Source: Phoronis australis
Taxonomy: Eukaryota; Animalia; Phoronida
NCBI GenBank assembly: GCA_002633005.1
Contig: NMRA01000246.1
Coordinates: forward strand, 425,856-489,855
DNA length: 64,000 bases
Direction: 5' to 3'
Numbering within the stretch: the stretch's first letter is position 1; each line of letters starts with the position of its first letter. The notes beneath the pieces were generated by a model. It did not search any database. It worked only from the letters and a program-made list of their open reading frames with translations, and was not told the origin of the DNA. Below, piece after piece: positions 3,950 through 34,100 of the stretch. A program made the position numbers and the translations under genes.

Positions 3950-4285
3950 ATGGGAAATCATGGGTAAGTTCCAGGAAGCGGCAATAGTGGCTTCAATATA
4001 ACAAGAATCTTCGGGTCCTATGAAAGCCACTGCTCCTGCTTTCCAAAGCTGCGTCAAAGCGCCCACGCTTGTTAGAATGTCTGCCCCATTGTCCATATAC
4101 ATGAGCTCAAATGTAACATTCGGCAAAACTGTGGGATCGTTGTTGACCTCGTAGATAGCGTTACTGATAGCGCCGGATATTGTTCCACCCTCCTTAGCCA
4201 TGGCCGGCAAATAAGCTATTTTTAAAATTTTGCAATCTGCCACGAAAATGATTAGAATCAAGATGTGAAAAAACAAAATGGTCAT
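3950..4285 (-). CDS. First coding exon of a receptor-type guanylate cyclase (ANF-receptor ligand-binding domain; Gyc32E/speract-receptor-like). Downstream exons not found in the window.
   Basis: ATG at 4285, hydrophobic signal peptide MTILFFHILILIIFVADC, then GAISNAIYEVNNDPTVLPNVTFEL..GAVAFIGPEDSCYIEATIAASWNLPMISH and a CAT|GTAAGT donor at 3949. Motifs are typical of the N-terminus of membrane guanylate cyclases. Confidence 0.8.
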
Positions 4286-5329
4286 TTTCGTCAGATAAGT
4301 CAAAAACGATCCTCGACTGATAATCTCTTCGGCTCAGCTATGAAGCGCCTTGCCAACTACAGTGTACATTCGAACTGAAGTGACTTTTCAAAGAAATCTG
4401 TATCACACAGAAGTGGTGTGAGCTGCAAAGTGTTCCACCTCTGTCGACTCCGTCAGTTTATCTGGGAGAAGTTGCCAAAGCGGTGATATTTTCATTCAGT
4501 ATGTGAAACGTTAATTGACGTCCGGAGCACTCAACGCCTAGAAGTGCACCTCCTGCGGTGGTTTTCCTGTCGATTTGCTGTCAAGTAGTAAATGCAATCA
4601 CTATCTTTCAACATGACACATTTTAAGCGGAAAAACATCATCTAGCGTCAGTATCGCCTTGGAAACCCCATGTTGTCTCATGTTTTGTTATGTACATTTT
4701 GTGTTTTCCCAAGTCGATGCTAAATAATGTGCTCATATAGTAATGCATCGCAATTAATAGTTTGTATTTAACATGGTGATGGATTTGTTCTTTTAGTGAA
4801 CATTTACGTTTTACATGTGAAACTTGTTTCTAAAAGCGACAATCTGTATCGCACCATCATTTTGGGTTTTTTTCTTTTGGATATTTTGTTCAATCTAAAA
4901 CTAACTATTAGTCCAATTATGTTGCACAAATCGTCAAATGGGATGGTATATATTTCCGGAGATATTGCGCCTTCATATAAAGTCGTAACTTTTGCTGCTA
5001 CGCCCTTTGAATCGTAAATGGAAGGATCTTATCAGGCAAATCCACATGTAATAAGTACAAACGTCGTCGTCGTCGCTGTCGATGTAGCATTCGTTGCCGT
5101 CGAGCCATCAGCGTCATTACTGACCGTTACTGTTTTGATGCTTTTTAACTTTAAGTCTTGACCTCAGTATTTCCTTCAGAAAACGTTCATGAAATAAAAT
5201 ACGCTGAGTTTTAGCGAGCTCGCTCTCCATTTATAAGACCATGGAAGTACTGCTTTTTCGGATTCGTTTCTCTTCAAAAATTATGGTTCATTTTCTGTAT
5301 CAAAATCGAGCGAGAATTTTTCTTAGATA

Positions 5330-10899: not shown

Positions 10900-12855
10900 G
10901 ACACTCTAGTCTTTGCCTGACTTTCTGTTGGCCAAGTTTGTGAAGACCTACAACGTCAGTTTGGTCAATGGAATCATCCCTAACATCAAGACAGATGCCT
11001 ACTTAAGTCCTCGGCCCCAACCTGGAAAGGACCGCTGCACTCTCAAGGAATATCGTATCATAGTCATACAGCACAACATTGGAAAAATCTCTGAAAATAT
11101 CATGGCGCGAAGAATCACGAAGTTCATCGAACAGGTAGGTCAATGCTTCTGTAGCAGATGAGATATGGCAACATTTTGAACAGCTGGCGATGCACGTGGC
11201 ATTCAAATTGGGTATCTGTCAACACAGACTTGCCTCAAGGTTCACTTCTGTGCCCAGTGCTGTTCAACATCTACACCCTACTACTCGCCAGACTGAACCG
11301 CACGACTGCCGACTTCGTACCTTCGTAGACGATATGCTGCTGCCATCACAAGGACAACGACACCACGAGATTCTCCACAAAGCGCAGTCTACACTGATGG
11401 AAATCTGCGAGTATTGAGCTACCAGTGGAATGAGCTGCAATGGGAATAAATGCGAAGCTCTCTTTTGTACACTAGACAATCGCCTTGTCCTACCTACGAT
11501 GGGACGAGGATTGCAACATCTGACAAGATGCGTCACTTGGGTGCAGAACTCGACCGCAGGCTGAACTTCACAGCTCCAGTTAACAGTATGATCAGCCTTG
11601 CTAAGAGAGAAATCAACCCCCTTAGGGCTGTGGCCTGTCGGAAGGCGGAGAAAAAGAACCTCGTCATGCTTTATAAACCCCTCGTCACTTCAGTCTTTGA
11701 CTACACGTTCTCCTCATGATCACTGCCAGAAAAAAATCAAATCAACAGGCTTGAGATACTCCAAAACATCAGTCTTTGCGTCATCACTAAATGTGCAAGA
11801 TCGACTTCAGTAACAGCATTACGCTACCTTGTCGGTGTTCACAGCATTGCAGACAGACAGTCTCTTCTACAAGGTATCACTGTAGCCAAGACTCTTCAAA
11901 ACCCCTTTCACCCTTTACACAGTCAAGTGAAGACTGCAAATGACAGATGCTTGAACCCTGTCCCTTCAATAGCAGCCTACCGACTTCGCCCTAGACCTTT
12001 ACGCAGTGTGTCCTACCAAAGACTTGGCAGATGCTCGTGGGCTGTCGCTGCTGTACATGTAAACGTAACCATGGACATCATGGGCTAACACATGATGGAA
12101 AAAGATGCTGCTTGGCTGTACCATCGCTTTCAATAGGGAAGTTAGGGAATGGTCCCCTGGAGTAGCCCAAGTATTGTGCCAGAAGCTATGGTGTGACCTT
12201 GGCAATATTGATGCCATCATAATAGCAACAGATGGATCCTTCGATGCTCGAACTAACCGTGCGGGATGAGACTACCAAATACTTTTTGTTGACAAAGTCA
12301 TTGCGGAAGGCAGTGGCTGCCACCATGTATACACAAGTAGTGCATTGATGTAGTTTCAGGTTATACAACGTGCCCTATCTAAGCTATCATACCTAGACCA
12401 GGAGAACCACACCATAATCATTGCCACCGATTCCATAGCCGCGTTGATGAAAGTTCGGTCTGGTAATCTCCCAGCCAACCGGGGTGTCTTCCGATCACGC
12501 CATCCTCATCATACAGTGACCTGGTACGTGTTTCGTACCTGGCCACACTAGTGTCTTGATTACTGAGCGCTCAAATTACATCGCTGGCTCGTGCACCACC
12601 AAACAACCACTCTGCTTATACTCGGCTGATGTTCAGCTGCTAGCTCACCGACGCACCTTCGAGCAGACCTTGTCCCAACTGGCCGAGTTCAACCATGGTA
12701 ACCAACTGCTCGAAGCTTTTAAAAGTCCCAAGAAGAGCTGTGCCCAAGTATTGTCCAATCAGATGCTGGCAGGCAACGCCAGTCCTGGAGTTCTGCGCCT
12801 TCCGCTATCACGAGAATTGTCTGGGAAGGGAATTAATGCACCAGCGTATCCCTAA
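10900..12855 (+). mobile_element. Decayed LINE with reverse transcriptase and RNase H (I-group-like)
   Basis: Fragments PQPGKD..EYRIIVIQHNIGKISENIMARRI, LPQGSLLCPVLFNIY, TFVDD, RHLGAELDRRLNF..MLYKPLVTSVFDY, and RNase H-like IATDGS and IATDS. Multiple stops and frameshifts. Confidence 0.8.
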
Positions 12856-13070
12856 TGATCCTGTCCGTGACAGGCATTACAGGTATTAAACGCAGTTTTT
12901 TAATTCAAAAACGTGACTGCACACACCTGTTGACAACTGCTACATGTGCGTGGTGACGGTTTTTATTGCAAAATCAGTAAACTTTTTCGTGTAACTTTTG
13001 AACAGACGCCGATTAATGAAAATGGAAATTATACTGTAGGAATTCGTTTACTCAAGGTAAGCACCTGCTC

Positions 13071-13290
13071 TATACACAACATGCTTGCATAGTGTATATA
13101 AATTGATAACGCGTTATAATTACTCTATACACAACATGCTTGCATAGTGTATATAAATTGATAACGCGTTATAATTACTTTATACACAACATGCTTGCAT
13201 AGTGTATATAAATTGATAACGCGTTATAATTACTTTATACACAACATGCTTGCATAGTGTATATAAATTGATAACGCGTTATAATTACTT
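13071..13290. repeat. Minisatellite, 4 x 55 bp, near-identical units
   Basis: Unit TATACACAACATGCTTGCATAGTGTATATAAATTGATAACGCGTTATAATTACT(C/T) starts at 13071, 13126, 13181 and 13236. Confidence 0.97.
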
Positions 13291-13681
13291 TCTAACATCG
13301 GGCACAGGGCGATTTCACATTATATGTCTCTTCCGTTACTGCAAAGATCTCGAGTAATCGCGTATCCGTTCAATTTGTTGGAATGGTTGACTCTACAATT
13401 TGATGTCGCCTTATGGTAAAGTTATGAAGGTATTATAAGGTTAGCAGATATTATTTCCGAGATAGGGCCAATTTTTTGCCTAAAGAAGAGGACAACTGTG
13501 AAATCACCTTCTACACACAAATGATCTCATAAGCTTATTCTAAATTCTACTATATTTCACTATAGAGGACATTATCGTATTCCAGGGGCCGATTCGGTCT
13601 GGAATTCGTGAATTGCGTTTGCGCTCAACAACAATATACTTGCTTGCCAAATAATAAACCATAATTACAGTTACATCGAAG

Positions 13682-16600
13682 TTAAAGTTCTTCTTTCTTG
13701 ATCTTTTTGTCGTAGTTCGGATACTTCTTAATATACCCCATAATGAAGTCAGAGAAAGCTGTAAGGGTTCTTTCGCTTTTGTAGTCCTCTAGAAAATAGC
13801 CGCTTCTATAAATTCGCAAAGTGGGAAACCCCCAAGCCTGTAAAAGACGTAACTTTATCAATATCACACAGACGTGTTATTATTTTCAAATGTGAAGAGC
13901 CAGTCGTGTAAATTCTTTACTTCGACTGTTTCTTCTGACAAACGCATGCGCAGAATTATCAAAAGATTCACGACTGAAACATAAACAGGCACCCGTGTCT
14001 CGACCTAATAGTTCAGTAAATTATGAGCAGAGGATCTGCAAGGGTCAGTCTCGTTCGTAGTTTTCGTTATGTACTTAGCAAATCAATCAAAACAGACTTT
14101 CACAATAACATCTCATTTTGTATCTAATCGTGAGTAATTACTGGTACCTTGTATTCGATGGTCAAAACTCCTTTGAGATGAGCTCAAAACAAGAAAAACA
14201 CCGGCGATTTTATGAAAGTAGTTGGCTGGAAAGAGTGATAAGGTTAATTGCCAATTAGCTAGTTGCTGTGGTTACACTTACGCTATGCTCTGTGCCACAG
14301 AAGTCTTTGTCTTCTCCTGAACAATCGATCTGAGCCACCTTTACTTTCTTGTAAGGTTTGAACTGTTTGGCCAAGTCCGCCCAGGTTGGTTTCATTCGAG
14401 TACAAAATCCACACCTTCGAACGACAAGATACGTGTCAACAGCACACAAACCTAATTATGTTTTCCAATCCAACTTCTAGTGCGTCGCGCACATTTTTAT
14501 GACAAAGCAGTCATATTGGTACAAAGCCAGAAGCCAGTAGACTTATACGTTAGTAGTGTCCCGACAATGAATTTCTTTCGCAAACACATTTGATTTCTTG
14601 CAGATAACGAAATTGATCAATTATATTATTTTTCGAATAGTTTTCTAGGTGTAAACGTTCCTCTGAACAATTCATTTCCATTGAAGTACATGCAACCATG
14701 CCTACAAACTTCTGATTGTGTTGATCGGTAAGTCTGTATCCTAATTTTTTATATGTCATTTTGTTCATACAATCATGCAAACGTTTGCAGAGCACTGATC
14801 GTGTAAATATACGCATCAGGAATCACTTCATCACTTTTCGGTTTAGAAAATGGAAGCCTGCTGTGGAATTTTGCAGAAGCAAATTGTAAACCCATAACCT
14901 CGATATTTTGACATGACAACAGCCACACACTACAAACTTCGTAGCACCTTCTATCGAGTATCATGCACAATTGTGTACACAGGGGGTATTTGAAGTATCC
15001 TCCTATTCCTGTCAACAAGCGAACTTTGGTGATGGAGGATTGCTGGTCGACATTATTAGTTACACAGTGGTGAAATTCAATATAATATAATATAATATAA
15101 TATAATATAATATAATATAATATAATAAAGTTCTGTAAGAGGTAAGAGAAAAAGAAGCTTACACCTAAACAGTGCACAACAACAACAGTATTTAGCATCT
15201 TTGGTTTCGAAACCAGCCTCAGTACCTACAGCCGTGAATTGTCTTCTTTCATATACTTTAAAACTTTAACTTTGTTTAAGTACTACTAGGCTAATGCCGA
15301 TCGCGTTTATTTCAGAGGTCATTTGCGGTACATGGCGCCCGTGTACAAACTGCTAACCTCGTGAAAAATCCATACTTACGTTGGTGAGTAGAACATAACA
15401 AAGACCAGCCTGTTCTTCACGAGTTTGTCGAATGTTTTCGATGTCAGCTCCATGATGTCTGACTGCCAAACAATTGAAAACAACAAGCATTTCACGAGTA
15501 TTCGGACATTTAATGATCAGCCACTATAACTAAAGATTTAGACCCTCAAATGAAATAGAAATGCAGCCACATCACCGCTTTGCAGCTTTTGGATTTTAAC
15601 GGAAACCACGGGACTATTATCACTTCAAATTTTTGTGTTTATGTAAATGTGTGCTCCGACATCGGTTGCATCCATAGTATGCTCGCGGGGCCACAGCCAG
15701 ACAATACATGTGCATGTAATTTTCGAAGTCCTTATAAACTGCGAGCGCAACGTATGTCTGCCATAAATGTTACTCTTGTTTTTAATTTTAGCATTTTAAT
15801 TTTACTTGACTGCTTCCAAAACCGTCGAAATGACGTCATACTAAAAAACGAATTGCATGACCACGTCACGTTTTAGATAAATTGCTTTCATGTGTCAATT
15901 TCTGTTGTACTGTATATGGCGTGTATTTAGGCATTTTGATCTATGTGCGATACTGAGCCTCTATCACGAATTAGGCGCACGCGCCTAGATGTGAAACTCT
16001 AATGAGTAATATTATGCGAGTGAAACTTGACTTACCCAAAACAATATTATTAGACCGTGACGTGAATTAAACTGTTGAATCAAACCCGCGTTCCGTTGAA
16101 CTTTGGAAACACTACACTTTGACGACTTAAAGCTGTAAAATTTGCCTCAATCTTTTTACTTTTTCGAATGAAAAGTGGTTTCATAGATTTCAAAGAATTA
16201 GGAGTCATTATTTCTTGAGACCACCTTCGGCGTATTGATACGATGTGTCGTGAATACTAAATCCAGTTGTAGAGTCTGGATGCCAGCAATAACGAACTTT
16301 TTTCGAGTTAAGGACATCTTCTCAAATTTGACTAAGGAACACTTTGAGAACAGTTTCATAACGGTGAACGGTATAACTAAAATTTGTTTCGAGACGGAAA
16401 GCCGGCTATGTTAAACGAAAACTATTTAAAACGGTCAAAAATACGTACAAAGACCATTTAATCCAATAACTATTTTGACGGTAATTGGTATGAAACTGTT
16501 AGCAAAAGTTCGCGCTAGGAAGCGAAATTCATTGTGCGGATTTACTTGTGTGTTTGCAAGATTGCTTCTTTGGTTCTTAATTGTAAATAGATGTTCGTTA

Positions 16601-19600
16601 AGCTCAGACAGGCATTTGTGGCTCTACACGATAACTCAATAAACGCCTCCTTATCCATAAAATATTAGACTTAAACCTCATACAGTATGCAGTCACAACT
16701 AGTACGGTCTGTCGTTCTTAGAAAAGAAAAAGACACGATCAAATTGCAAACTGTACCGAATGGCTGATACTAAATACATGACTAAAACTTTTACCTCCCG
16801 GAACATTTACAAGTTACATGACACAGAACTGCTATCTCACTTTATTAGACTAAATTCTTCAGGGTCTAGTTTTGTTTCTCAATCACCATAACAACACGGC
16901 AACAGATTGTTCTTAGTCGCCGGGTTCTGTAATTTTTAGGTTATGCCGACGTAGTAAAATATTACTGTGTGAGATATTGAAATGAACGTCCAGTCAATGA
17001 AATATTACCTTCTTTTTAGGAAACGATTTCTTTGCTTTCATCTTCCTGATGTATGTCTCCAAGTTGTCTTCCGAGCGGCTTCCTTCATATTTGTCTACCT
17101 ATTGAAACACACAGCAGCAGTGAAGGTGAAGCAAGAATGTTCGCAAACAGGGTTGCGCCAAGCACAGACGGAAGACTGCAGAGCCCGAAAACGCAAGATC
17201 ACACACTCTTCGCCAGATACCATCATGCATTAGCTCAACCTCTGGCATGGGGCGATATCCAATTTCCGACTTTGAGCTACAAGAACATTAAGTAGCCAAG
17301 TAGGGTTCTTAAATGTTCTCTCATTCTTCATGAACTAGGGATAGGTTACAAATTGGTGCATTTTGCTGCTTGAGTAACATGTACAGTTGCACGGATGAGT
17401 TGAGTTTCTGCTCGATGTCAAGGAACGTTGGAGCTAGGCAAATTTGAGATTCGTGTATAAAATCAGCGATACTTTCGAGAGGACAGCATGGAATTCAAAG
17501 CATAGCTTGAACTTGATTTGTTTTTGTGGATTAAATTCTAGTCGAACTCAAGCCTGCAATTCAGCTGCTGAATGTTGTTTTCTCTAAACACTCGTCAAGT
17601 TAAAGTAAAGTCAGGGTTTGTGTGCAATTAGTGATAAACTATCTTTCCTCCAAGACGAGTGTTGAGAAAAGACAACTGGTACACTTGTAAGATGTTAGGC
17701 TCCATATGCATTTGCAAGCGTTGCAAACTCTCATGTGGCCACTGCCTTATTGTGGCAGTTATGCAACATCTTGGCGGTGACCTTCATGTAATTGTGTTTT
17801 GTATATCAAATATCCAGGTGAAATCTAAAACACACGACCCAAAAGTATTTCTAAGACTGCTTTAGTTCCCTGTTTCTTCATTTTCAGTCAAAATCGAGTT
17901 TCAATGCCATTAAAATGTCACCCATTGAAATCAAAGGTGTTAGCCTTAGGTCGGGATTGTCACCATATTCGTCTCTTCAAAAACACATACTTATTCTCAT
18001 TCCTAACACCAATGTGAATGAACAGCATTACAGACACATTAAGCAAATCAAAATAAATTTATTCTGATTTGAATTTTGCCGCAACTGGATGAGTATCATA
18101 CATTCTATTTTCTTTACATAAACTAATCTAATAAACCTTTCTTGAACAACACAGCGACCAGCTACAAATTTCAGTTACTCGACCAGAGGCACCATTTTGT
18201 TGTGGTGACATTTTTATATGAGATAAATTTCCTGGCCTCCCTAAATCAGCTTCTGCTTACAATGGAATTGAAACTGAATCAAGGGGGAACTGCGACGCCG
18301 TCTTTAGTTTGTCCAGAGATCACGTCTTGCGACGGAAACCATGAAACAGCTCAAATCAAAATGATAGTACATGTACACTCGCGTCGACCATCTAATCAAG
18401 AAATCATGCCAACTTGCCTGTTTACCATTGAAGAACCAGAGTAGCGTTGGGTAACCTTGAATGCCATATTCAGCACAAGTGTTGGTGTCTTTTGTGCAGT
18501 CTACCTGTAAACAGATATTCTTACCGCTTTATTTGTTAATCTATACTTCACACATATACTGTATTTACTAAGTTGTATTCTGGATCAACACCTTGACTTC
18601 GAAGAAAATTTGAATACGTTTTTTATCTGAAGCTTCTAGTAGAGCGTTAGGGAAGATATACTCAACATTCCGTATTAACAAGAATCTAGGATTAGAAACA
18701 TTTAAAACTTTATTTAATTCATGTGTAGCACCAATTTTGGATTACAGATCATCTGTTTGGGGTTACAAAAATTTTGGTAATGATGAAAATATCCAAAAAA
18801 GATATGCCTTTTTATCTAGGGGTCAACCAATTTAAAGCCACTCATGTTGTTAGTGGTGACATGGGGTGGGACTCGACCGGAAACATGTTGGGGATTTCTA
18901 TGGGAGTACTCTGTTGGTAGAAACGGTTGGATAGACGGAATCAAACTTCGTTTAACATAACTGGCATGCAATCATGTTTTCAAAATTTGACTGCTTGTAA
19001 CATAGTAGATGCTTGAAACAAACTATTCGAATACTCGAAACTTGTTTGGACTGAGTCTGTTGTAACAAAACCCAAGTTAAGATCCTGTATTTTATTTAAG
19101 CACCGGTTTTTAATTGAACCGCATGTGAAGCTTAAGTTATCTCGTTCTGAGCGATCTCTTTTGGCTCAGTTTAGAGCAGGACATCTCCCATTGTACTTGG
19201 AAACTAGTCGGTATGTAAACACTCTTGTAAGTGAAAGACTTTGTTTGTGTTGTGATACTCATTCTGTGGATGATGAGCTATATTTTGTGTTTAATTTTTC
19301 TCTTTGTAAATCACGGAGGTCTATTCTGTTTCACAATGTTTCACTTCAAGTCCCGAACTTTGCAGATTTCAGAAGATTAGATACGTTGAAACTACTGTTT
19401 CAGTATTTCCCTAGGCAATTCGCCAAATATATCAAGTCTGGTTTTTAACTCAGAAACCGTCGCATTTCTGGTACATCTTAATTGTGTGGTTGAAGTGACT
19501 AGTAAGCCCAAATGGGCTGGGTACTTATTTTTCTTAGGAATGTTATATCTATAACTGTTTGAATTAATTATAATTAATAAATACAAAACAAAACAATACA

Positions 19601-22600
19601 ATATAATACAATACAATACATTACAATACAACACATACGTACGTTCATACACACATACATACAAACAAGCATACTACAAACATACATACATGTACATGCA
19701 TCCATACATACATTAATCAATGGTATTAAAATGACTAGATTATCAATTGCTATTCACCACTGACTGTATGATTAACTCAGGGCTTATCAAGTATTAAGTG
19801 GAGTATCACTTGTTTCCGGTATACCTACCTGGGCGATTGTTACTCCTTTAAGATTGAAAGTTTCCGCCAGATGCACCCACAATGGCGCCAAATGTTTACA
19901 GTGTCCACACCAGGGGGCGTAAAACTTGATGAAGAAGTGGCCAGACGAAGCACCTGGAAAGTTGTCCGCAGTGAGTTTTACGACTGCTTCTTCTATTTCT
20001 TCTTCTACATAGTTGTCTTCCTCCTCTTCTACGTCCTCTTCTCCTTCGTCTACTTCTCCTTTTTCTTCGTCCTCTCCGTTGCCGATCTTCCAAGAGAAAT
20101 TCAATAGTTCACCAGTATAAAGATAGCCAAGAACAATACCCATGCTATGCGGTTATTTACATTGATGCAATTCATGAGCATTTGCACTTTTAGGCCTACA
20201 TACTCATGTGTCTGTTTAAGCACCATAGGTAATTTGGTAGATAAAACTTTTCAGTGAAATAAAACATAATACATAATTCATTTCACCAGTGATGATGCTC
20301 TGTTGTTGTCAGCAGCAACAATTTTGCACTTTGCTTTGCACCTTTTTAAGTTGTTCTGTCAAGAATGTTTCCAACTCCTCTGAAGTCCTCTCGCCGTCAA
20401 ACAGCACGCTCTCACTCTTGTCATCGGAAAAGAATTTAATTCTGTAAGTTTGGAAACATGTGATTATTGACCACCCGCCATTTCAATGCCTGTTGGTCCT
20501 CAAAAATGATGGATCGTCTATCGGGAAGTTCAACTTAGTTGTTGAAGGACAGTCGGTGGGTACAATAAGTGATATTCATAACATTAATAACAAAATTAAT
20601 TTGATCACTTAAACGCCATCCTGTCACACTTATTCATCGAGGTAATTAATACAACAGCAAAACTTACCCAATAAATTTAAATCCGTTTTGTTCACAAAAC
20701 GTCGTCTCTTCTTCACAGTTTACCTGTTGGCAAAATAAACGTCACTATTTAACGATGTCTCGGTTTTAACAATAACGACATTATTATACAGCAGATATTG
20801 GCCAATCCCGATCATGTTATCTGGTCATAAGGCCGGACTGAGGGTGAACAATGTTGCCCTAGTCCGATGGCTGAGTACTTCCCCGGGGTATCCCTATGAC
20901 ATGATATGGCCGAGTGATTGGTCTATATTTGTTTTATTGTACCAACACTGGTGCTTCTTTGATCTGATTGGTTGTTCCTTATTAGATGGGCATTATTTGT
21001 TGCATGATCATCGTCTGCTCGTTTTGTTTACGTGATCAGGGGTCTATGATTTCTGCACCCAGAAATAGGTGAGATAACAAATACATCTGACTTCCGGTCG
21101 GCATGAATGAAAAGTGATCCCACGGCTATCTGGTCAACATTCGCAACAGCAGTTTTTGTTACTGAGTTGTAGCCAATCAGAGGACAGAAACTATGAATGC
21201 CATTCGCGTTGTTTGAAATACGTGTGAAGGTAGCGATATTCACGGCGGTGGCGATGATGACGATGGCGTCCATGATGATGATTGTAATGAGATGGACGAT
21301 GATTTTTTGTTTGGGAAGAACATGGTGAAGAAAATTATATCAATGATTATGACGAAGATGGAACTGGTGTCCACGAAAGTTAGCAAGATGACGGTGACGT
21401 TAATGGCAGCGATTACGGTGAAGAGTAAAATTTAGACTTAAAAGCACTAACCTTAACTATCTGCACCTTGGCTGATTCCTCATCGTTGTAATAGAAAGCC
21501 AAGTCATTCCAGATAGGAGCAAATTTCTTATAATGTCCACTCCTAAAAGAACAAAGCGAAAATGCTACACTACAAAAACATAAATCTGTTTTTTGTCACT
21601 TGTTTTTTACTTCAACTTCAAAAATACTGGTTGTACTGTGAAAACTGTTGGTCACCTACAGCACACACTGGGAGTTCAGTGCCATGCTGAACAGAACGTC
21701 ACTCATGGGATTGGTTCAATTCACGCGTCGGTGATATTTTACGATGTGCGAAACAAAGGAGTGTGTTAATTTTCAACGAGTTAAAACAGGTGATTGATCC
21801 AGCATGACTTCACGTGTCAGCGTGATTGTCACAGTAGGTTCCCTGGACATGTGCTCGTTGTCTTACAAATCTTTGTTACTGTTCAATGCGAACAAGTGTG
21901 TGCTCTTTAGTCTTACGCATTTTTAATTGCAGAGTTACATGTAACAAAACTCCTCGATTACCACCACAAAAACTGGACAAGAATGTCAAAATACACAGCT
22001 CTGCCCAAGTGGATTGTTTCGGTTGCATAATGTTTTTTGCAATAATCATAATTTTCCATCTGAACATTAGACAAACAAACTCAGGGTGCTATTTATACAC
22101 TTTACCTCAGTCGAAAGTGCATATTGTCTTATTTGCATGTAGACAATCTATGGTTATAAAACTTTTATAAATGAATACATGCATAGTTGGCTGTGCATGA
22201 TTGGGATACTCTGAAATGAATGTACAAAATGTCTTGGTTTTATTTTAAGAGCTACAAACGATTTATACCTCAAAATTTAAAGATATATTTTCACTATCAC
22301 GACAAATTATAAAACGAAATTTAAAGCAAACCAACTTACTCATAATCATTTCAAAATAATCCTCTTATTCAGCATGACGTTGTGTTTAAACAATTGAAAC
22401 AAAATGCAGGAAAGCATCCGTAGACTCAGTTTCTTGCGAGAAAAGCAAGAGACTTCTCAAAATCATGTGAGTGAAAAAGGAGCGTTTCATGAGTGTGTTC
22501 TACTGTTTACTAGCCTGGCTTAGCAAGGGGACCATTGAAGTGAATGGTCGGCAAGACAGGAGTGTGGAATTGTGGGATGAAATGCGGTGTTTCCGTTTCA

Positions 22601-23385
22601 TAATTCAAGATGTTCACTGCGAGTGCCTACTAATGTGTTGGTGTCGTTGCAATTCAAATTAAGTTCTCTTTTGATGCTTTCCATCAATATAAAAACTTTA
22701 AATTTCTGATGGCACATCCTCGAAATTACCGCCACAATTGAATGACACGGAAATTTTATGACTTCATGAAATCGACAATTAAGAAAGCAGAACAGGCTAG
22801 CGCTGTAATTAACAGATCAAAATGCTGATGTTTTAGCCATACACATTCAAGATGTTTTGAACTACAGTACCAATGTGACGTTATATAATGGATAGTGAAT
22901 CTTTAAAACGAGTAATGATAACGCAGTACTTGCTTTAATCATAGCGTTTGGAAATTAGTTCACTTCTTGGATAATTAGAAATGTCAACCATGTGAGACTA
23001 AAACAAGAAATACATGGCCAGGAGGTTACCTGAATTTTGCGGTATGAGGTGGCTCAATAAATCATGGCATTACAAACTTGGAGGGTCTAGTTCTTGCTAC
23101 AATCAGTTTTGAATGATGTTGCGGAATTTTACAAAATCTAAGCAATTGTATTAACTTGAAGAATGCTTTGCAATAGCTTTTTAAATTTTATGTGACGCGA
23201 GACATTAAATTATGCGTAATGTAAACTTACCAAGGTGCGTAAAACAGGACCAGATGTGGCGTCTCTTCAATAGCTTTAGACAGCTCTACTTCAGTGAGAG
23301 TTAAAGCGTTTGGCGCCAAATCCTCTGATTTGACCGTCCAAATAACTGTCGTGTAAAATATAAAAAAGAATGTCGGCTTCATCAT
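13682..23385 (-). CDS. Divergent TXNDC5/ERp46-like PDI-family paralog, 10 exons, ~402 aa (signal peptide, Trx[SGHY], acidic linker, Trx[CGHC], basic linker, Trx[CGFC], KEEL)
   Basis: Exons (minus): 23385-23231, 21542-21452, 20723-20668, 20441-20342, 20086-19829, 18504-18418, 17098-17009, 15462-15380, 14414-14282, 13837-13682. They sum to 1209 nt, are open throughout, and intron phases match TXNDC5. Intron 6 has a GC donor, the exon 4 donor (GTGCAA) is weak, and two acceptors are AAG. Confidence 0.85.
15080..15128. repeat. (TATAA)n microsatellite
   Basis: About 10 tandem pentamers in intron 8 of the paralog. Confidence 0.95.
18570..19450 (+). mobile_element. 3' fragment of a CR1/L2-group LINE, antisense within intron 5 of the paralog
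   Basis: [17 protein letters not shown], then ORF 19125-19448 [40 protein letters not shown], typical of CR1/L2-type ORF2 C-termini. Confidence 0.75.
19580..19712. repeat. Compound (ATACA)n/(ATAC)n microsatellite
   Basis: Imperfect tandem penta- and tetranucleotide units. Confidence 0.85.
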
Positions 23386-24864
23386 TCTGTCCACGTCAAC
23401 ACCACTAAGATGGTGGCTATGAAAAGGATGACGTGTAATTCGACACTGCTATTTATGCCGTTTAGGTAGCCACCTGATTCTCACTCGGCGGTTCAATACC
23501 CCGTTGAGTAACTTAAGGTATATCGGCATAACGGCGGTATATAACACGTGTGTCGTATTGCACTACCGCTATGATTTTTTATTGAGTAGTAATGCAAGAA
23601 CCCGACGCTCACGGTGGGCGACTTACGCTTAATAGATCGTGAATATTTATGCTGTATTCACGAAGACGTGGACCATTTACAAGAAGGCATACAGGAAGAG
23701 CGATTAAAAAGAAAATAATGCGCCGTAAGATCACCACTGGTGACAAGAGCCTTTAACTCGAAGTTACGTCATCGAAATTAAAGCAGATCTCTTGTCTGGT
23801 CGGTTGTGTCAAAAAATATGAAGGTAGATCCGACGTTCGCATTTGAATTGTTCACATAGCGATCACGAGTTCGATCTCTCGTGATTGGGCGGCAAGTGAA
23901 CGCTAGCTTAAATTACAACTAATATCGACCCAAATTGAAAAAGCTTATGTACAAAATGCTAAAGGATTATCTTGGATCACCTTTTAAGGGACAGTTGTTA
24001 AACTGCCTCTAATTTAAAAATGCTGAAAATATAACACTCAGGGCCATTTTTCCAGCACGTTCACACTAAAATTTATTTTCTGGGTCAAATGTTTACACGA
24101 TTAATTTAATGCACCTACACATGCAATGATGTCGCAAGTTTCAGTTATGTGACCTTGATTGGAGTTGTGAAAATTGTGGCAATCAGGGAAATTGTGTCAA
24201 ACTGGTGGAATAAAAAACCGTGGAGAAATTGAGCGAAATTGTGACGACAGGGTTCAAATTACCGTGAAAACCCAAACATCCTAAGGCCGCCACCATACTC
24301 ACGGCCATCACCAGTGAAAGTAGTCACTGAATGGCCGGGTTCACTAGCGATAATGCGAAATGATCCAGCACTGAAACATTCATAAGACAATGAAAACAAC
24401 CTACCATTTTGCCAGCTACAGCTCAGAATCAACTTAGAACCGGTATGCTACGGTCCATTTACTATACATACAGAAATAAAAATAACAAGATGTCACGAGG
24501 TTTATTTTTGATTTTTGAGTCATCTTCACTGACGCGGTGCTTGCGAAGACCAACGAGGAGTCTGGCCTTAATGTGGATAGTCAAGTTTTGTAGTTCCGGA
24601 AAAAGCCCAATAAGTCCAAAATGTTGAGTATTTTCACTGCCGTATTTTCATAATCGGTATTTTTGGAATGGAACGTGAACATCATTTTGTTCAAAATACC
24701 AATACGGCGTATATGTAGCCTAAATCTCAATCGGCAAAATCTGTCCCAAAGCCGGCCTTTTGATTCCGAACTCCACTCCTTATGATCAGAGACGGGAAGG
24801 TAGCTAGCAAAATATCATAGTTACAATTTGTCAATTTTTATCCTTGGGCAATTTTTAAAGCATC

Positions 24865-25880
24865 GTAAAATATGAAAAATATCAAAGCGCCGGATCCTGA
24901 TGCATTCTCAGTAGAATTCCTTAGATTTTTGGGGTGATCTGTCAGTCATCATCATAAGATCGTTCGTTTAATTATACAGCTGGCTCCCTACAGGCCAGTC
25001 AAAACCAGGGCCGTATTGCTCTCATTCCTAAGGGGAATAATTCTAGAGAACACCTGGTGAACTGTGCAAGATTGCATGAAATATTCCCAAATAGGAACTC
25101 AAGTAAGTCCTCTAAATATTTCAATTATGCCGCGTATTTGTGTCGTTCTTTACTCACAGATCCAATCTTTTTCTGTGATTTCATCTTTATTATGAGCGCC
25201 TCCTAATTTTCCAATATTGTTGATTCGATGTAGAGTTCATTCTCGATTTCTACTAAAGCAAAAATTGACTTAGTTTTGAATCCAAAACAACACAAAAGGA
25301 CAATCACCATTTATACCCACGCAGTAGATTTAAGGATCTTAGTCGAGTCCCTGTTTATGAATTTAATGCAACAAGCATCGGAGAGTTACCTTATTTCGTT
25401 GCTCAATGTGTCTTACAAAATATTATCGAGTTCTGTTGCTCGCTGTATTAAAAATACCTGTGATTCTTTTATTAACAAGACTCAGACAGCATTTATAAAA
25501 GGAAGATTTATAGATGAAAACACCAGGACTACATGTATTTGCGATCTCATGCATTACCGACAGCCGTAACGTCCCAGCTCTGCTGGTCTTTGTAGACTCT
25601 CATAAAGCCTTTAATTCTGTGTCCCGTGATTTCGTCTGCAACGCTTTAGCTTTTTCAATTTTGGACACAATTTGTCCGTAAACTCGAACCAAATCAGCAT
25701 GAATTCACCTACGAATATTTTCCTTTAAGTCGAAGATGTCGTTACGGTGAGCCAGTGTCGTCATACAAGTAGTTATTTATTGTGTGTGTGGATAGATCAT
25801 GTCTTTTATATATCAAGAAACGACAGGAATCTGAAGGGTGTCAAATTCGGTAACAAAGAACTCAAAATTATCAAATATTT
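24865..25880 (+). mobile_element. Decayed L1/Tx1-clade RT fragment, interrupted by an ~320 bp insertion (~25065-25380)
   Basis: KAPDPDAFSVEF, LIPKGNNSREHL, then ISLLNVSYKILSSSVARCIK..QTAFIKGRFIDENTRT..CDLM, colinear with the RT at 46600-46950. Confidence 0.75.
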
Positions 25881-28117
25881 TCTCAGTGACTATTCCAGAA
25901 GAAATCCTTGAGACCACTACACAGAGGTCATTCCACTGGGATAAACATGTACCATTAGCGCAGCGAGTGAACAACCGAGTTCAATGTGACTAATTTCTCT
26001 AGCTTATAGGGGATAAGGACATACTGTACATGTACAGTCACGCTGAAAGCGCAAAAATGCGATTTGGGGGGCGCCAAAGAATGGAATAGAAAATAACAAA
26101 AAGGCCACTGAGGTGGCGCAAAATGCGCCAATTCTGTCCGAAAATACCTGTAAGGCGTCATATTTACCACATTCTATAAAAATTACTCAGGAACTCTCAG
26201 ATACAGAGGCAAACGAGAAAAATACAATTGACATAGGCCTGCTGTGTACAGTGGACACAGCCGTAGTCAGATCAGTAGATCCAAAAAGAAGCTGCCACGC
26301 TCGTTAACTTCACAGCAACACATCAGCGAAATATCACAAAACCACTTCAAAGGGTTTAGGAGATACAGCACTACGCACAAATATCGAATGAGGCAATTTA
26401 CATTTCCACACATTCAGTGCTTCTAATACAAACATGAAGTGATGCAGGTGAGACTTTGGCATGATTACTGCCCGGCTCTGAGCTGATAAAGGTTTGAAGC
26501 TCCAATATCAATGATCGCAGTCTTAGGTACTTGAGATGGGGACAATTAGCCCCAGATTCGGACAAAAATTACGAAAAATGGCGCAACACAAGAAAAACTT
26601 CAGGAAACGCAATCAACAACGGTAAATCATACGACAAATCAAGCCACAAAATCAGACAGGGTCAATCAATTTACCGTTTCCCGTAGGTTACAACTTTCAA
26701 GTTGACAATCCCATGGGTATACAGTAGGCCTACAGATTGCAGTAAAGCGGGTCGACAAGCACTTTAATGGGACATCAATAGAAAACGTTCCTCAAGGTTT
26801 GTGTACTAGTGAGCCGAGGGTCTACAAAAAAGCTCCTAAGGGGAAGTTCCAGCAGAATGAGATAGATCACTGTTTAACTTACCTTTTTTGGTATTTACTA
26901 CTCTCATCCTCCATCAATGTGGGTTCCAAACATTCAGTCTGAGACTGCCAGGTACACGATTATTTTTGGAGTCAAATTCTTGTCTTTGTGCCACAAGCAC
27001 CGATTTAGTGAAAAGTGGCGTCAACACTAGCGTGGTGAAGTGTCCAATTTCATCCGTGTTGTTCCAAAATTTTTCCCCAGGTCTGATGTCTACACCACCA
27101 CAAAAAACATGGAGACAGAAAACAGAGTGTTTTTTGGTCTCACTCAGTTAATGGTTTTATTTTTAAAACTGTTATATGTACACGAAATTAAAAATTATCC
27201 TTGGTAATGTATATATTGCACACAGAAAAAACCACAATATGACAGTCACAGTCACAGTCGACACTAGAAATAAAATCTTTATTGACGAATCTTTCAAACT
27301 GCTACAAAAGTCCTGTAAACATGTAAATTACATCCAAATAGTAAAATTATATAGTCTGAATCTTGATAAAANAGTTTGAAACCCAAACCCCCCCCCCCCC
27401 CCCCGGCCCAACACCTACAAAAAACAGCACAGACAAAGAAAGTATTCATGTAGCAGTCTGCATATACATAATGTGTTACTTAAAATGTCAACTGTCTCAT
27501 TAACACTATTTTCCACAGGAGCTGGGTAATAGCTATTCCACAATGATACAGGCAATCAACACTCGGTTTTCAGTACATAAGCCCTACAATGTATTTACTG
27601 TCAATTTAAATTGAAAGCAGTGCCAGTAGACTTAGAGATAAAACATTGGTGAACATATGGTACGAGTTTGCATTTTCATGGTGTAATATTTATGGAGTCA
27701 AATGTTTTTCTAGTAATCAATGCCATTCTTCACAAAAATTATACATTGACTAGTCTGTTAATTCCATTTAAAGTGCTGTCTTCTTACAGCATACTACTTC
27801 TGAACAAAATACTCAATGTTGCGCTATGCCATTAAACAAAAATCTTTGCAAGGTAGCTGTTCAAGAAAAAATATCGAATGTCAGAAAATTCCAGCAAAAG
27901 AACCACAGAGCAATGTTTGCCAGAGCACTGTGATAAGATTGCTCTTTTGATGATCAGAACCTACATGTAGCGTAGAGACATTAATCTTTAACTGCACATA
28001 ATTATACCTTAAGCTGGGATGAGTATCCTTAAGAAATACGAGTAACTAGGTGGTTGTTCGACAAGGCCACGTCTAAGGTGTCCCAGACAAGAAACTGTCT
28101 ACACTACTGCTCAGGGT

Positions 28118-31100
28118 TCAAAGTTCATCATGAGGCAGATTGTCCATGATAAACTGGTGCAGCTCTTCAAAGTCTCTGCTTCCTGAATACTCCTGCACAT
28201 ACTGACCGTCCTTATATAAGAATAGCGTGGGATAGCCTTGAATCTGATAAAACAAATATCATGGGTACATGAAGGAGGACTAACAGCTATAATTAAAACA
28301 GTGTCACACATGCGTTGACAAAAGAATGATAAAAATAATGATTATAATAATAATAATAACAAAAACACTAATAATAATATTAACAATTATTAGTAAATAA
28401 TGATTTTGATACTGACAAAAATCCATGAAGAAAAAGAAGAGCAATAAGAATTAATGGCAGAAGTAGACAAAGATAAATGAAGAATTAAAGTGGCATAGAA
28501 CATGTCAAACAGACATTATTCAAAATAGTGTTCTACCATTAAAACAGAAGTCAAACTGTTCACCAAGTATTTTTATAGTTTGTTTGCCGAGGTCAAAGCA
28601 TCTTTCCTTTAGTTTCAAATTTCAAAAAATAAAATCTCAACTGTTCGTCAATTCATGGATTTTTGCAACTCGCCTAAAGCGTAGGTCACACTTACGAGGT
28701 TGGCACAACTTGTAAGGAGTTTTCAAACTTGAATATTTACATGTATAAGTTAAGCCCAAGTGCTGCAAATACAAACTACTTACATTCTGTTCCCTGCAGA
28801 AGAATTTATAGTCATCACAGTCTAAATGAGCTATCTTCACAATGGTTTTTACGCCCAGTTTGTTGGCTAGCTCCTCCCAAGTTGGGGCTAGTCTCTTGCA
28901 ATGACCACACCTGTAAAGTTCACACAACTGTCATGTACTTGAAGAATGGGTTAAATTTAAAGAATTGGGAAACCAAACAAACTTGACGTATACATTACAT
29001 GCATTTAATGACCCACATCATGCTACTTAAATAAAGCCAAAATAGCATACATTGAAACTGGGATGTCACATTAGGTCGAGTGAATCCTGCCATTGAAGAA
29101 AAGGATATTCCGTCCACTGTTTTATGATGTGTACAGTATAATTAAGAGTGTTAACTTGCTGTATCAAAAACATATCGAAGGATTACAACCAAAACAAGAC
29201 CCAAGACAATGGTTTTCAAAGATTTAAAGGGGTTATGAACTCGCCTTGCCTCACACATCAAACTTTTGATTTAGTCAACTTACCCTTGTGAAATTGGTCT
29301 CAAATTGCTTTTTGGTTAAAATGGATGTGCTTAGTGGACTTGGATAGAATTGACAGTTTGTTATAGCTCCAGACATGTCTCTAAAGTTGGCGTGTTATTC
29401 TACTCACTTAGCATGTAATGAACTGTCCATTATTTGTACGACAAAATTAAATTACTTCTCACCTGTACAAGGAACCAGTTGAGACCAATTATTATAAACA
29501 GTAGATTGTCTAACTTATAAGTTTCTTCAATGGAATACAGGTTTATATTAGCCACTTTAAGGAAATGTTATAAGTTAAGGTATCAAAGAAATAACTTATA
29601 ATATGTGAGTATTGCATTTTTTAAAAGAAGGCCACAAAGCTCATAACGCCCTCCCCCCAAATTACAGTCTAACGCTCTCCTGCGGAGCTAAATCTCACTT
29701 GGTAGACGGTAGAGTATTTGAAGCAAATTGAAGCACATTTAACTGGTAAAGTCACTGGCCTTGAATTCAGAAAATGTCTGGCAGACAACAGCACGTAACG
29801 AGAATTGCCATTTCTAATAGAATCACAAAAACCAGGGGTTTTGTCATTTTATAGCCTTCATCAAAGCTAATAACTTAAAGATTAGTCTTTTCTATCCAAC
29901 AATCGTCTCAACTTTAACGTGAAATAAAGAATTAGGATCCATGACAACAAACAATGTAGAGATTTACAAAAGGATTGACTGTACTGTCACACGACTCACC
30001 ATGGTGCGTAGAATTTGACGAAAGTTATTCCAGTAGCTATGACATCACTGAATGTCTCGTCAGTTAGCTTAATGACATTAGACTCAGCTTTGACAGGCTC
30101 TTCAGTGCGCTGAAATACAAAAATATTTTATTGGGGGTCTCAGTATAGTATTCCTTGATAGCTTGTCTTATTAACAGATACTAAAAACGACTTTCCCATC
30201 CAGTTCTCTGAAACAAAATAATGTTGTGTAACCCTCAACAACACTCAATACTTTGGAGGAAAATTTGAAAACTCCTCTCACCTAAGCTAAATGGACAAGC
30301 TTGCCTTACGCTGTTAGCAAATTACACACCAACTGCGGAAAAAGACCACCCACCAAGGACCGCAATAACCAATTTGTGAGACAGGGAGACTGTTTTTAGT
30401 TGATTGCTGCCTTTATATTTCATGATAAATGGCAATGATGCATTGGCAGGAGACTGAACGAAGATTGGTTGAAATCATCAAAACAGGCTTTAGTAACCTT
30501 TTAAATTATATCATAAACTTTACTTCAAAAGGCAAACAACTTGTTATAGCGGAACACAGCACGTAATGAACATGGAGTTTCATATGAAGCCAGCCATCCA
30601 TTTCTGAAATACAGTGGTCTGAACTTTGCCAAATTTGGACATTTTTGGTAAATACATTGGGGCTTTAAAAGAATTGTGACGTGTTTTTAAACAGAATTGA
30701 CGACAGTCAGCACTTGTTCTACTTATCCTCACAGGCTGGACCTTCATGTCTTGAGTCAAAGAAATGCAAAGTTGACAGTAAAAGGGCTTATATCAGGACA
30801 CCCAACCGAGAATTTTAAATAATTTTTTATGTACATAATCATAATTATAGAACCATATTTTATAAAGAATCATCGGTAACCACAAGTGGAAAAAATCTAC
30901 CATAAAGGAAATGCAATTTAACGAAATCATGAAATGTTAGTCTGTCATCAATTTGGACTTTTAACGGCCTTTTTGCGAGATAAAAGCAATTTGAGTTGAA
31001 CTTTTGTCCCACTTCTCTTGGAATTACAGGGCCAGACTTGTGCTTGTTTTCCATGTAAAAGGTAATAGATCTCACAAGAAGTTACGCAACAAGGTGTCAA

Positions 31101-34100
31101 TATTATCAAAGCACAAGTGGTCACTATTAAGTACAGCCCTCCTGACCAGTAAAAACACTTATACCTCCGGTATTTGCTCATCTGTCCTGCGTACATTGGC
31201 ATCCTGTTGTTCCATCATGTTAGACACGTATGACTTGAGAGCATCAATATCTCTTCCACCTTTATACTTGTCCACCTGAGAAGATAAAATAAGGTCATGT
31301 TTTGATACAATGCTGGTAATAGACAGGTGTAATGTGCCCACATTTTGAGAAACACCTTTTCCACTAACTAACAGGCATCAAACTGGTTCACAAAACATTG
31401 GCACACTATGTCCGACTACTTTGTGTTAAACAAATTAAGAACTGTAGGAAATCAGTATCAGTATATAAGCACATAAACATTGGACTTAATTCAACATTCT
31501 GGCATTGCTAATGTTATTTGAAGATTTCATTAACTTCTGCAAGCCTCTAATTCACTGTTCAAAGACACGGGGCAGTTAAACGTATGTTGCTTGATATGCA
31601 AAGAGTCACAGACATCAGCAATTAGTTCAAGATGTGGACGCAACATTGTGAATCAGATGAAGCAAGTTCTGCTGTATTTAGCAAATTTGACTAAGCATGC
31701 TGACAAGCCACCTTTTAACATCAAATGTAAAGCTTGAATTATCTAACACTTTTTAGTAACCATAGCTCAGTAAACTCTAGTAATACTAGCCAAGCCTGGA
31801 TATTTGGCAATATTGAATAATGCATAACATTACTTTTGCCTAAACACAGGTTGCCATCAACTTCTGCCAGCTTTCAATGACACCCTTGATTAACTAAATT
31901 TTATTGATTTGTATTCCTATTGACTATCAAAATCGTATACTCTGTAAACAATATGGCATGCTCACACTATCCATTACACCACACACAGCCAAAACTGAAA
32001 TGCTTCAGAACACTGGGAAATGAGACAACATGAAAATCACAAAAATGCGAACTGTTAATGACCATTCATGAATCCTATGTTCAACAAAGTATTGTCATGG
32101 TGAAATGCTTTTGAGATTGTCCAGTCAAAATCAACTGCAACAAAGAGAAAAGCCATGCTCACCAAAGGCTTCAACACGCTAGTCGACAATATCAAAGAGA
32201 AGAACAGTGTGACACAATAGTGTTGAGCCATGTGTCTCCTCTATTGTATTTTGGAACTAGTTTCTATGTAAATAATAAAGCAACTTATTTGCTATCAGAA
32301 AGAAAAAATTTTGCAAATCAAGTCTTTGCTCAATTACGAGCCATTCAAATAAACCACCATATGTACCAAAGAAGTTAAGTATAACTTTAAAAGACAACAT
32401 ATATCCAAAACACTAAAATCATCTACACTCCCCCCCATCCCCTTCAGAAATTCCTATTTCAAATGTCGATGTTTTACATGCATTTTTTCATTAAAATTTG
32501 CGAAAGAACCAAAGTGTCACATTTCTTATGAAAATATTATTTTAAGTTGCCCAGAGTCATACAGCTTGACTTTATTGCAAAAAAATATGTTTTACCATAC
32601 AATAAACAAAATATTAAAGTTTGTTGCATTATCTGTACATAACTGATAGTCATTCCAGAATAAGAAAAGCAGAATAGATTTTCAAGATGAATAAACATTT
32701 ACACATGGCATTTGGGTCACATTAGTTTTGTTAATTAAAACCAATTTGAATGTACTAAAAATGAACACAAAACACTTCTAACGCCTTAACACCAACATGC
32801 TTAAATCTTTTGGTGGCTAAGGTACTCCACAATTTTTACATTGAAATTTAAAAATTACAATGCAGCGTGTGATACAAAATCAACATCCTGTAACACACCG
32901 TAAAGGGAAATGGAACCAATGGGACATTTCTCAGTAATCATTGACGAAACTGGCACTGGGGAAAACAATAACAAAAAATCAAAAACTGCATGCATTACAG
33001 AGACTTTTAATGAACAGTACAATAAAACTGTAACAAAAACTAATCATTACAACACGCCAGCAGGCATACCTAATTAATGTAATATCATAATTACTAACTG
33101 GTTGTCCATTGGTGAAGAACAGCAACGTTGGGTATCCCTTGACTTCATACAGGTCACACAGTGGCTTCTGCTGAGTGCAGTCCACCTGAAAATCACCATT
33201 ATACTATTTTGTACTCTATGTCAAAACATTGACTTCTTGTAAGCCAAACTCAGAATTTGCAATTAAAACTGCAATTAAAATATATCAAAATTTTGTTCTT
33301 ATGAAAATCTGAAAATGAGGAATTTCACTGCAAACCCTTGCTCCAGTGAGAAAGGTTTTGGGTGATTTTGAGAATAAAACTCAAAACCCAAATGCAACGC
33401 TGTGTCCTCGTCATTGCTCTTACCACTTCAAACTTGTGTTTCAAAAAATCCACTTACTTTTGATATGTGCACGTTTTCTGTATGTTGGAAAGTTTCCGCT
33501 AGTTGATCCCAGACGGGTGAAAGTTTCTGGCAGTGTCCGCACCATGGTGCATAGAACTTGATGAAGTTGTGGCCAAACTTGGTGTTGGCGTCAAAGTTCT
33601 CTGTAGTCAGCTCCACAAGAGATTTCTTAGGTTCAGGTGGTTGAGGATTTTCGGCTTCTGCCTAAAATAGCAAAATTGTCATCAGTAGAGAAACCATTAT
33701 GTTGACATGTCCAGTTTCTTGCACAATATGTAGAGCTCCTTATTAAATACAATGCAGAGATTCTTCACTCAATTAGATATGTGATTGTTCAAAAACAACG
33801 ATAAAAAATTTCTGAATAATTAATATTTTGTGGCGGCTGAACAGGTATGGATAAGGCATTAAAACTGCTTTCACCCAGTTAAGCTGGGTAAGAAACGAGA
33901 ACCGAATTAGGCCTTTTACTCTCATAAGATGAGTCTCATAATATGGTACTCCTCGGCGTGATAGTATTACCATTACCAACAAGAAAATCAACACCATCAA
34001 CTCGACAAAAAAGCTTAATAATCAGAACTAAACGGGAATACCTAACCTTAAAAAAGCAAATTCAAGAGTGGTACAGGGCAAAATAAAGCTTTAAATGAAA

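Follow-up and report, generated by a model that had tools for sequence, protein, structure and literature searches.

Does the second TXNDC5-like gene of the phoronid Phoronis australis encode a working protein, and, if so, what would that protein do? The gene lies on the minus strand at 13682-23385 of a 64,000-nucleotide stretch of contig NMRA01000246.1 (assembly GCA_002633005.1, positions 425,856 to 489,855), which we refer to as the window, and a canonical TXNDC5 gene, here called the parent, stands beside it. TXNDC5, also called ERp46, is a protein disulfide isomerase (PDI) that normally carries three equivalent CGHC domains. The initial annotation of the window had described the second gene as an old duplicate kept under selection, with one dead, one canonical and one variant domain. 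Our reading, to which we give a probability of about 0.55, is that the duplicate is an expressed and constrained tandem paralog of TXNDC5 whose product would be retained in the endoplasmic reticulum (ER) as a client-specialised oxidative folding enzyme with two redox sites and one docking domain.

Structure, transcription and origin of the duplicate

Rebuilt from its splice signals, the duplicate has ten exons running from 23385 to 13682 on the minus strand, and its 1209 coding nucleotides specify 402 amino acids and a stop. The frame contains no internal stops, in agreement with the initial annotation, whose 403 open codons include the stop. The intron phases are 2,0,2,0,0,0,0,2,0; eight of the introns are of the GT-AG type, and intron 6 is GC-AG.

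RNA data were available from one organism in four runs on each gene: one study supplied three raw RNA-seq runs, and a second study a contig set, whose contigs are spliced but whose derivation from RNA is a guess. All nine predicted joints of the duplicate were present in four of four runs with the joint reads all on one strand, and the same held for the nine joints of the parent. Junction reads had been proposed as a check on the gene, and they showed that it is spliced as modelled. A single 1696-nt contig spans the complete model, from 13306 to 23411, and the GC-AG intron is crossed by 10, 39 and 29 joint reads in the three raw-read runs. The 5' untranslated region (UTR) is short (23386-23411, minus strand), with its farthest 5' ends at 23409-23411: the contig reaches 23411, and six molecules end at 23409 in run X3. 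The 3' UTR, taken from the RNA contig, covers 13306-13681 (minus strand) and extends at least to 13306; no poly(A) hexamer was found at 13001-13700. Just past the mapped 3' UTR lies a tandem repeat (13071-13291) of four copies of a 55-bp unit with 99% matches.

We also observed a minor form that skips exon 8 (14412-17007), in 2, 5 and 2 reads of the three raw-read runs; the skip shifts the frame before the third active site.

To compare the two genes, we summed the joint reads, which are not independent reads. The duplicate/parent sums were 54/176, 232/100 and 286/344 in the three raw-read runs, that is, ratios of 0.31, 2.32 and 0.83. In the fourth run the contig depth was 708 for the duplicate and 52 for the parent, which is a poor measure of expression. 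Because the joint-read ratios range from 0.31 to 2.32, the transcript level of the duplicate is comparable to that of the parent, with a balance that varies between runs. Compared with the window, the contigs of run X1 show 17 differing letters in about 530 at 13306-13836 and 31 in about 500 at 27500-28002, the two 3' regions, which is more than is seen in the raw-read runs. A distant population or a close relative may be the source of this run.

The parent (28118-38384, minus strand), which we rebuilt in the same way, has ten exons encoding 390 amino acids with three W-CGHC sites and an HDEL end. Between its stop codon and the ATG of the duplicate lie 4.7 kb. The initial annotation had noted that the two genes share their intron positions and phases. 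The phases are indeed identical for nine of nine introns, and seven of the nine lie at alignable homologous codons; introns 4 and 7 fall in gapped linkers, where the phase alone can be compared. The proteins match with a BLASTP E value of 3e-86 and a global identity of 143/370 (38.6%). Each domain of the duplicate scored best with the same-numbered domain of the parent, domain 1 nearly so (200 versus 119 and 139). The absence of intron similarity, likewise noted at the outset, held up: paired introns gave chance-level matches only, the best being 77% over 35 nt at the 3' end of intron 5 (E 0.001), and a gene-against-gene blastn search (E<=0.01) returned a single match, 74% over 94 nt in exon 5. 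No third copy was found by tblastn within the 64-kb window. Since the two genes are adjacent and share their introns, these data show a tandem duplication of the whole ten-exon gene.

Domains, age and phylogeny

Throughout, we compared the duplicate with a family sample of 175 full-length three-domain TXNDC5 proteins, which is fish-heavy and amounts to about 30 effective sequences after weighting. W-CGHC occurs in all three domains of 153 of the 175 (154 if the parent is counted), and the pattern of the duplicate, W-SGHY / W-CGHC / T-CGFC, in none of them. A hidden Markov model of the family domain matched residues 28-132, 169-269 and 282-384 of the duplicate with 77.5, 120.5 and 93.8 bits. 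The duplicate thus has three thioredoxin-fold domains in tandem, and no b-type domain separates them. The domains described initially as dead, canonical and variant carry SGHY, CGHC and CGFC, and the dead domain is also without its cis-proline loop.

Domain 1 is encoded by the first four exons (all exons are on the minus strand, and their boundaries come from the gene model and the RNA joints, with the family comparison added for exons 2 and 3). Exon 1 (23231-23385), joined to exon 2 in four of four runs, holds the start, the likely signal peptide and the first part of the domain. A signal peptide had been claimed for the duplicate. By hydropathy it is likely, the best 10-residue value being 2.17 versus 2.22 in the parent. 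Exon 2 (21452-21542) holds the dead site, W-SGHY, in which both cysteines are lost. Exon 3 (20668-20723) retains the structural cysteine pair and has lost the cis-proline loop, which is one residue shorter; exon 4 (20342-20441) completes the domain. Among the 175 family members the cis-proline is present in 174, 175 and 173 for domains 1, 2 and 3; the duplicate keeps it in domains 2 and 3. Eight of the 12 conserved positions lost from domain 1 comprise both catalytic cysteines, a position three residues beyond them and the five-residue cis-proline loop, so that, as judged from the alignment, the loss is centred on the catalytic face. The domain keeps 17 of 29 family-conserved positions, whereas among the variable positions it keeps 4 of 37 (Fisher p 5e-5), and its core is hydrophobic at 28 of 30 positions. 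Its fold appears to be retained.

Domain 2 is canonical and keeps 36 of 39 conserved positions, within the normal family range. Exon 5 (19829-20086; PF00085 E 1.4e-11) encodes a 34-residue acidic linker with a net charge of -19 and then the canonical W-CGHC, exon 6 (18418-18504) the structural cysteines and cis-proline, upstream of the GC-AG intron, and exon 7 (17009-17098) the end of the domain and a short basic linker. Domain 3 starts in exon 8 (15380-15462), the exon absent from the minor out-of-frame form, and has its variant site, T-CGFC, in exon 9 (14282-14414; PF00085 E 1.8e-5). The coding part of exon 10 (13682-13837) supplies its cis-proline, a basic tail, KEEL and the stop. The CxxC, the cis-proline and 28 of 29 core positions of domain 3 are kept, as are 23 of its 35 conserved positions, and the changes surround the site; as many as 12 of 35 are lost in only 2 of the 175 family members. 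The KEEL end given in the initial annotation is the C-terminus of the rebuilt protein, and it is shared by 3 of the 175. We found no transmembrane segment (best internal 19-residue hydropathy 0.99) and no N-glycosylation site in the duplicate protein. The charge distribution has changed as well: domain 1, the first linker, the second linker and domain 3 carry -12, -19, +5 and +4 in the duplicate and -5, -1, -3 and -4 in the parent.

Altered sites also occur elsewhere in the family. In three of the 175 members (P0095, P0111 and P0127) a first-site cysteine is lost or displaced in the alignment, and P0227 has CGHS in domain 3. Site loss in the TXNDC5 family is thus rare but not unique. Odd motifs, such as FSTC, CEYC/CSHC/CIHC, CQQC, and CGYC with CGHS, were seen in P0095, P0111, P0112, P0114, P0127 and P0227, which are arthropod or unnamed. 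This suggests that active sites have changed repeatedly and independently in the family. Domain number varies too, since P0001, P0002, P0059, P0180 and P0283 are TXNDC5-like proteins with four or five thioredoxin domains (the Styela protein has five CGHC sites, and that of Mytilus is 517 amino acids long).

We then asked how old the duplicate is and whether selection has acted on it. Between the paralogs the proportion of synonymous differences (pS) is 0.77, which is saturated, and that of nonsynonymous differences (pN) is 0.39 (dN 0.56). Four-fold sites are identical at 19 of 55 positions, versus about 26% by chance. Among the allelic differences listed, reads departed from the window at 8 synonymous and 3 nonsynonymous coding positions of the duplicate. 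With 239 synonymous and 967 nonsynonymous sites, these 11 differences give an allelic pN/pS of about 0.09 (binomial p 2e-4). Because pS is saturated against a pN of 0.39 and the allelic pN/pS is about 0.09, the duplicate is old and under purifying selection as a protein. The age and retention that the initial annotation had inferred are thus supported.

Sequence searches placed the duplicate within TXNDC5. Among 272 fetched proteins, the 12 that scored best against it were TXNDC5-type, and its best match among solved structures is human TXNDC5 (8eky_M, E 2e-35). Ortholog searches used an exon 5 query (58 matches from 65 candidates), a ten-exon profile (best 120 of 517 matches from 3739 candidates) and an exon 10 query against 1.84 billion representatives (32 matches), and none of the three found an ortholog of the duplicate among the matches listed. 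None of the 272 fetched proteins that aligned over more than 200 residues matched the duplicate with a higher score than the parent, and among 28 further proteins none did so at any length, barring a 106-residue match of P0289 and one tie. The best relatives of the parent are the TXNDC5 proteins of Owenia and Lingula, at 49-50% identity (top 49.6%). The ortholog blank is weak evidence, because single exons served as queries and the parent itself has no relative above 49.6%, so that the protein sets searched lack the clade of this organism.

Trees were built from rows hand-picked from the 175 family members. In a 41-row tree the duplicate and the parent are sisters at 48/80, with branches of 2.41 and 0.65. 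When more spiralians were included, in a tree of 30 rows, the duplicate grouped with Owenia in 747 of 1000 bootstraps and with the parent in 54, the branches of duplicate and parent being 2.29 and 0.80. The grouping of duplicate and parent is not rejected by the approximately unbiased test (p 0.289). The phylogeny that had been proposed as a check fixes neither the origin of the duplicate nor the date of the duplication.

Possible function and competing explanations

In PDI chemistry a domain without its catalytic cysteines is incapable of disulfide exchange. Since domain 1 of the duplicate has none, it should not be capable of thiol-disulfide exchange. By the same chemistry, domain 2 would be a normal disulfide-introducing site like those of the parent, and domain 3 would exchange disulfides with altered reactivity or an altered choice of partner. 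In DsbA, replacing the cis-proline does away with turnover (PMC13269488). KEEL would return the protein to the ER; the same tetrapeptide ends human PDIA2, PDIA4, PDIA5, PDILT and ERp29 (PMC12781119). More tentatively, the acidic domain 1 and the acidic linker might hold basic, cysteine-rich clients in the manner of PDI b-type domains, which are non-catalytic and serve client binding (PMC12781119). A precedent for such specialisation is csPDI of cone snails, which arose from a PDI duplication and folds conotoxins better (PMC6275033).

The two genes may also differ in their control. The parent stands head-to-head with RPLP1, the gene for 60S acidic ribosomal protein P1 (five coding exons, 38877-44153, plus strand; PF00428 E 2e-5), with start codons about 490 bp apart, and the two likely share a promoter. 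At the duplicate, a motif search found TGACGTGG, an exact consensus of the unfolded protein response (UPR) element, inside the 5' UTR (23391-23398, minus strand), and the UPR-element-like TGACGTGT (23429-23436, plus strand), which lies upstream of the outermost 5' end by about 20 bp. TGACGTGG/A is described as the UPR element to which XBP1s binds (PMC8301375), and XBP1 and ATF6 are reported to target TXNDC5 in mammals (PMC11049379). The degenerate motif TGACGTGK occurs six times in the window versus 3.06 expected. Two of the six sites lie within 50 bp of the duplicate ATG, one on each side of positions 23409-23411, where the 5' ends reach farthest. The probability that a given 100 bp contains two of the six is about 4e-5, but the region was picked after the sites had been seen. 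The motif is absent from the start of the parent, and no ER stress response element was found in the window. Expression of the duplicate might be raised from its own promoter in cells that secrete or are under ER stress, and the parent would remain coupled to the housekeeping promoter of RPLP1. UPR-type control of the duplicate is a lead and not a result.

Several observations weigh against the reading of the duplicate as a specialised ER enzyme. The window-wide count of TGACGTGK is not clearly above chance, as 6 of 100 shuffles reach six, and the pair of sites was noticed post hoc, with one of them inside the 5' UTR. The allelic test uses 11 coding differences among those listed, with 111 further rows in the table. 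A branch 3-4 times the length of the parent's also fits a long period of relaxed constraint. Domain 1 may keep its fold as a spacer that binds nothing, and differences in the expression ratio may be individual or technical, the runs carrying no tissue labels. No ortholog was found among the matches listed that would show the odd motifs conserved across species, and the activity, clients and location proposed for the duplicate are predictions.

The duplicate might instead be a back-up or subfunctionalised TXNDC5. Two working sites would then serve the clients of the parent, domain 1 would be no more than a folded spacer, and dosage or a different expression pattern would be the only reason that the gene is kept. 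The domains of mammalian TXNDC5 work independently, without cooperation (PMC11049379), and one site could therefore be cheaply lost. The three family members with a lost or displaced first-site cysteine and the CGHS of P0227 are in keeping with this, as are the expression ratios that differ between runs. Nevertheless, three observations speak against it: the many changes in domain 3 that cluster around a retained CxxC (12 of 35 positions, matched by 2 of 175 members), linker charges that shifted in opposite directions, and a branch 3-4 times that of the parent. We consider this explanation unlikely. Decay of a transcribed pseudogene would explain a catalytically dead domain and the minor out-of-frame skip of exon 8. 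It is largely refuted: 402 codons have stayed open despite saturated synonymous sites and unalignable introns, every splice site is used, the allelic pN/pS is about 0.09, and expression is at least that of the parent in some runs.

A further explanation is a dedicated partner subunit: the duplicate might be permanently attached, as its redox component, to a different ER enzyme, such as an EDEM-type mannosidase that acts in glycoprotein degradation, with domain 2 forming the bond and domain 1 providing the docking surface. Mammalian ERp46 is stably bonded to EDEM3 (PMC7563561), and homology models with mutants implicate ERp46 217-CGHC-220 in that bond (bioRxiv 10.1101/2025.01.29.635535). By alignment this site belongs to the middle domain, the one site that the duplicate keeps intact. 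TXNDC11, a partner of EDEM, has CGFC in its Trx5 domain (PMC12781119, PMC7563561), and a UPR-element-like promoter would also fit. However, the parent retains the same middle site and could serve, and convergence at a single residue may explain the CGFC match; we regard a fixed subunit as rather improbable. A secreted or cell-surface thiol isomerase or ligand with leaky ER retention would be in line with the activity of several PDIs, ERp46 among them, at cell surfaces (PMC12781119) and with the extended, basic C-terminal tail that ends in KEEL in place of HDEL. However, KEEL is normal for ER-resident PDIs (PMC12781119), occurs in 3 of 175 TXNDC5 proteins and has been retained on a very long branch, and the duplicate has neither a transmembrane segment nor an N-glycosylation site. 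This makes a role outside the cell very unlikely.

Our preferred reading, an ER-retained enzyme with two redox sites and one docking domain, can be carried further. A TXNDC5 copy may have convergently rebuilt the classical PDI division of labour: one non-catalytic domain would bind clients, one site would oxidise, and the last, re-tuned, would act as isomerase or reductase. With UPR-type control of its own, it would serve lineage-specific basic, disulfide-rich secretions as a counterpart of csPDI and would form a new PDI subfamily in an invertebrate clade not yet sampled. We put this forward as a tentative possibility.

The remainder of the window holds unrelated features. Downstream of the duplicate, an exon with an ANF_receptor ligand-binding domain (3929-4333, minus strand; PF01094 E 4e-9) probably begins a gene of the receptor guanylyl cyclase type. 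Two long open exons (52124-52453 and 55316-55978, minus strand) belong to a gene for a coiled-coil protein with sub-threshold Pfam matches; its last exon may be GRIP-domain-like. A degenerate retroelement resembling a long interspersed nuclear element lies at 46308-48950 (plus strand), with reverse-transcriptase matches to PF00078 at E 1.5e-7 and 2.5e-4. Similar-looking fragments occur at about 700-1450, 10900-12100, 18560-19470 (intron 5 of the duplicate) and 25200-25900, with no Pfam match where tested.

Comparison with known disulfide isomerases

To our knowledge, TXNDC5 is the sole PDI described as having three equivalent, independent catalytic domains. The duplicate resembles TXNDC5/ERp46/PDIA15 in its three thioredoxin domains without b domains, a likely signal peptide and the putative ER-retrieval end KEEL would fit as well, and human TXNDC5 has ten exons and nine introns, as does the duplicate (PMC11049379). 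It differs from TXNDC5 in its sites, which are CGHC in all three domains of TXNDC5 and SGHY without the cis-proline, CGHC and T-CGFC in the duplicate, and in its long acidic first linker and basic second linker and tail. Because the three-CGHC feature fails, the duplicate is a derived TXNDC5 paralog and not a canonical member. Fast disulfide introduction with reoxidation by peroxiredoxin 4 is the trait described for TXNDC5 itself (PMC11049379). The passages of a Conus survey that treat TXNDC5 give three CGHC sites only (PMC4747531), and those of PMC7449970 that treat mutants report a triple mutant only, in which the domains are not separated. At the level of titles and abstracts, with subscription journals and supplements outside the scope, we found no TXNDC5 paralog of this pattern in the literature.

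Like the duplicate, csPDI is an invertebrate PDI paralog that arose by duplication, and it is specialised for secreted disulfide-rich clients (PMC6275033). It is of the PDIA1 type, a-b-b'-a' with two redox sites, whereas the duplicate has a TXNDC5 parent and a-type domains only, one of them dead, in a single copy in the window. Membership in the csPDI type was rejected on the absence of the a-b-b'-a' architecture. PDIA5/PDIr is similar in having a non-catalytic domain followed by unequal sites (CSMC, CGHC, CPHC) and a KEEL end (PMC12781119). However, PDIA5 forms a separate four-domain b-a-a-a family, while the duplicate has three domains, TXNDC5 introns and a non-catalytic domain that has been converted from a catalytic one. 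We rejected membership there on domain number and on motifs that differ.

PDILT, ERp27 and ERp29 have lost active-site cysteines and retained an ER-retrieval end, as has the duplicate (PMC12781119), but they have no complete CxxC, and the duplicate retains two. TXNDC11 shares CGFC in its last thioredoxin domain (PMC12781119, PMC7563561) and is a 985-amino-acid, five-domain membrane protein, whereas the duplicate is predicted to be soluble. With 402 amino acids, three domains and no transmembrane segment, the duplicate was excluded from TXNDC11 as well.

Dead or altered sites are a recurrent theme among PDI paralogs, and since PDI duplication with site loss or change is well known, the weight of the present case is moderate. 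Its value lies in the pairing: the duplicate and its unmodified parent are a ready pair for studying how a catalytic thioredoxin domain changes into a binding one and how clients are chosen. Should the duplicate be used for one particular secretion, it would draw attention to that secretion and might provide a foldase for disulfide-rich products. The duplicate extends the theme of PDI duplication and active-site change to the TXNDC5 branch.

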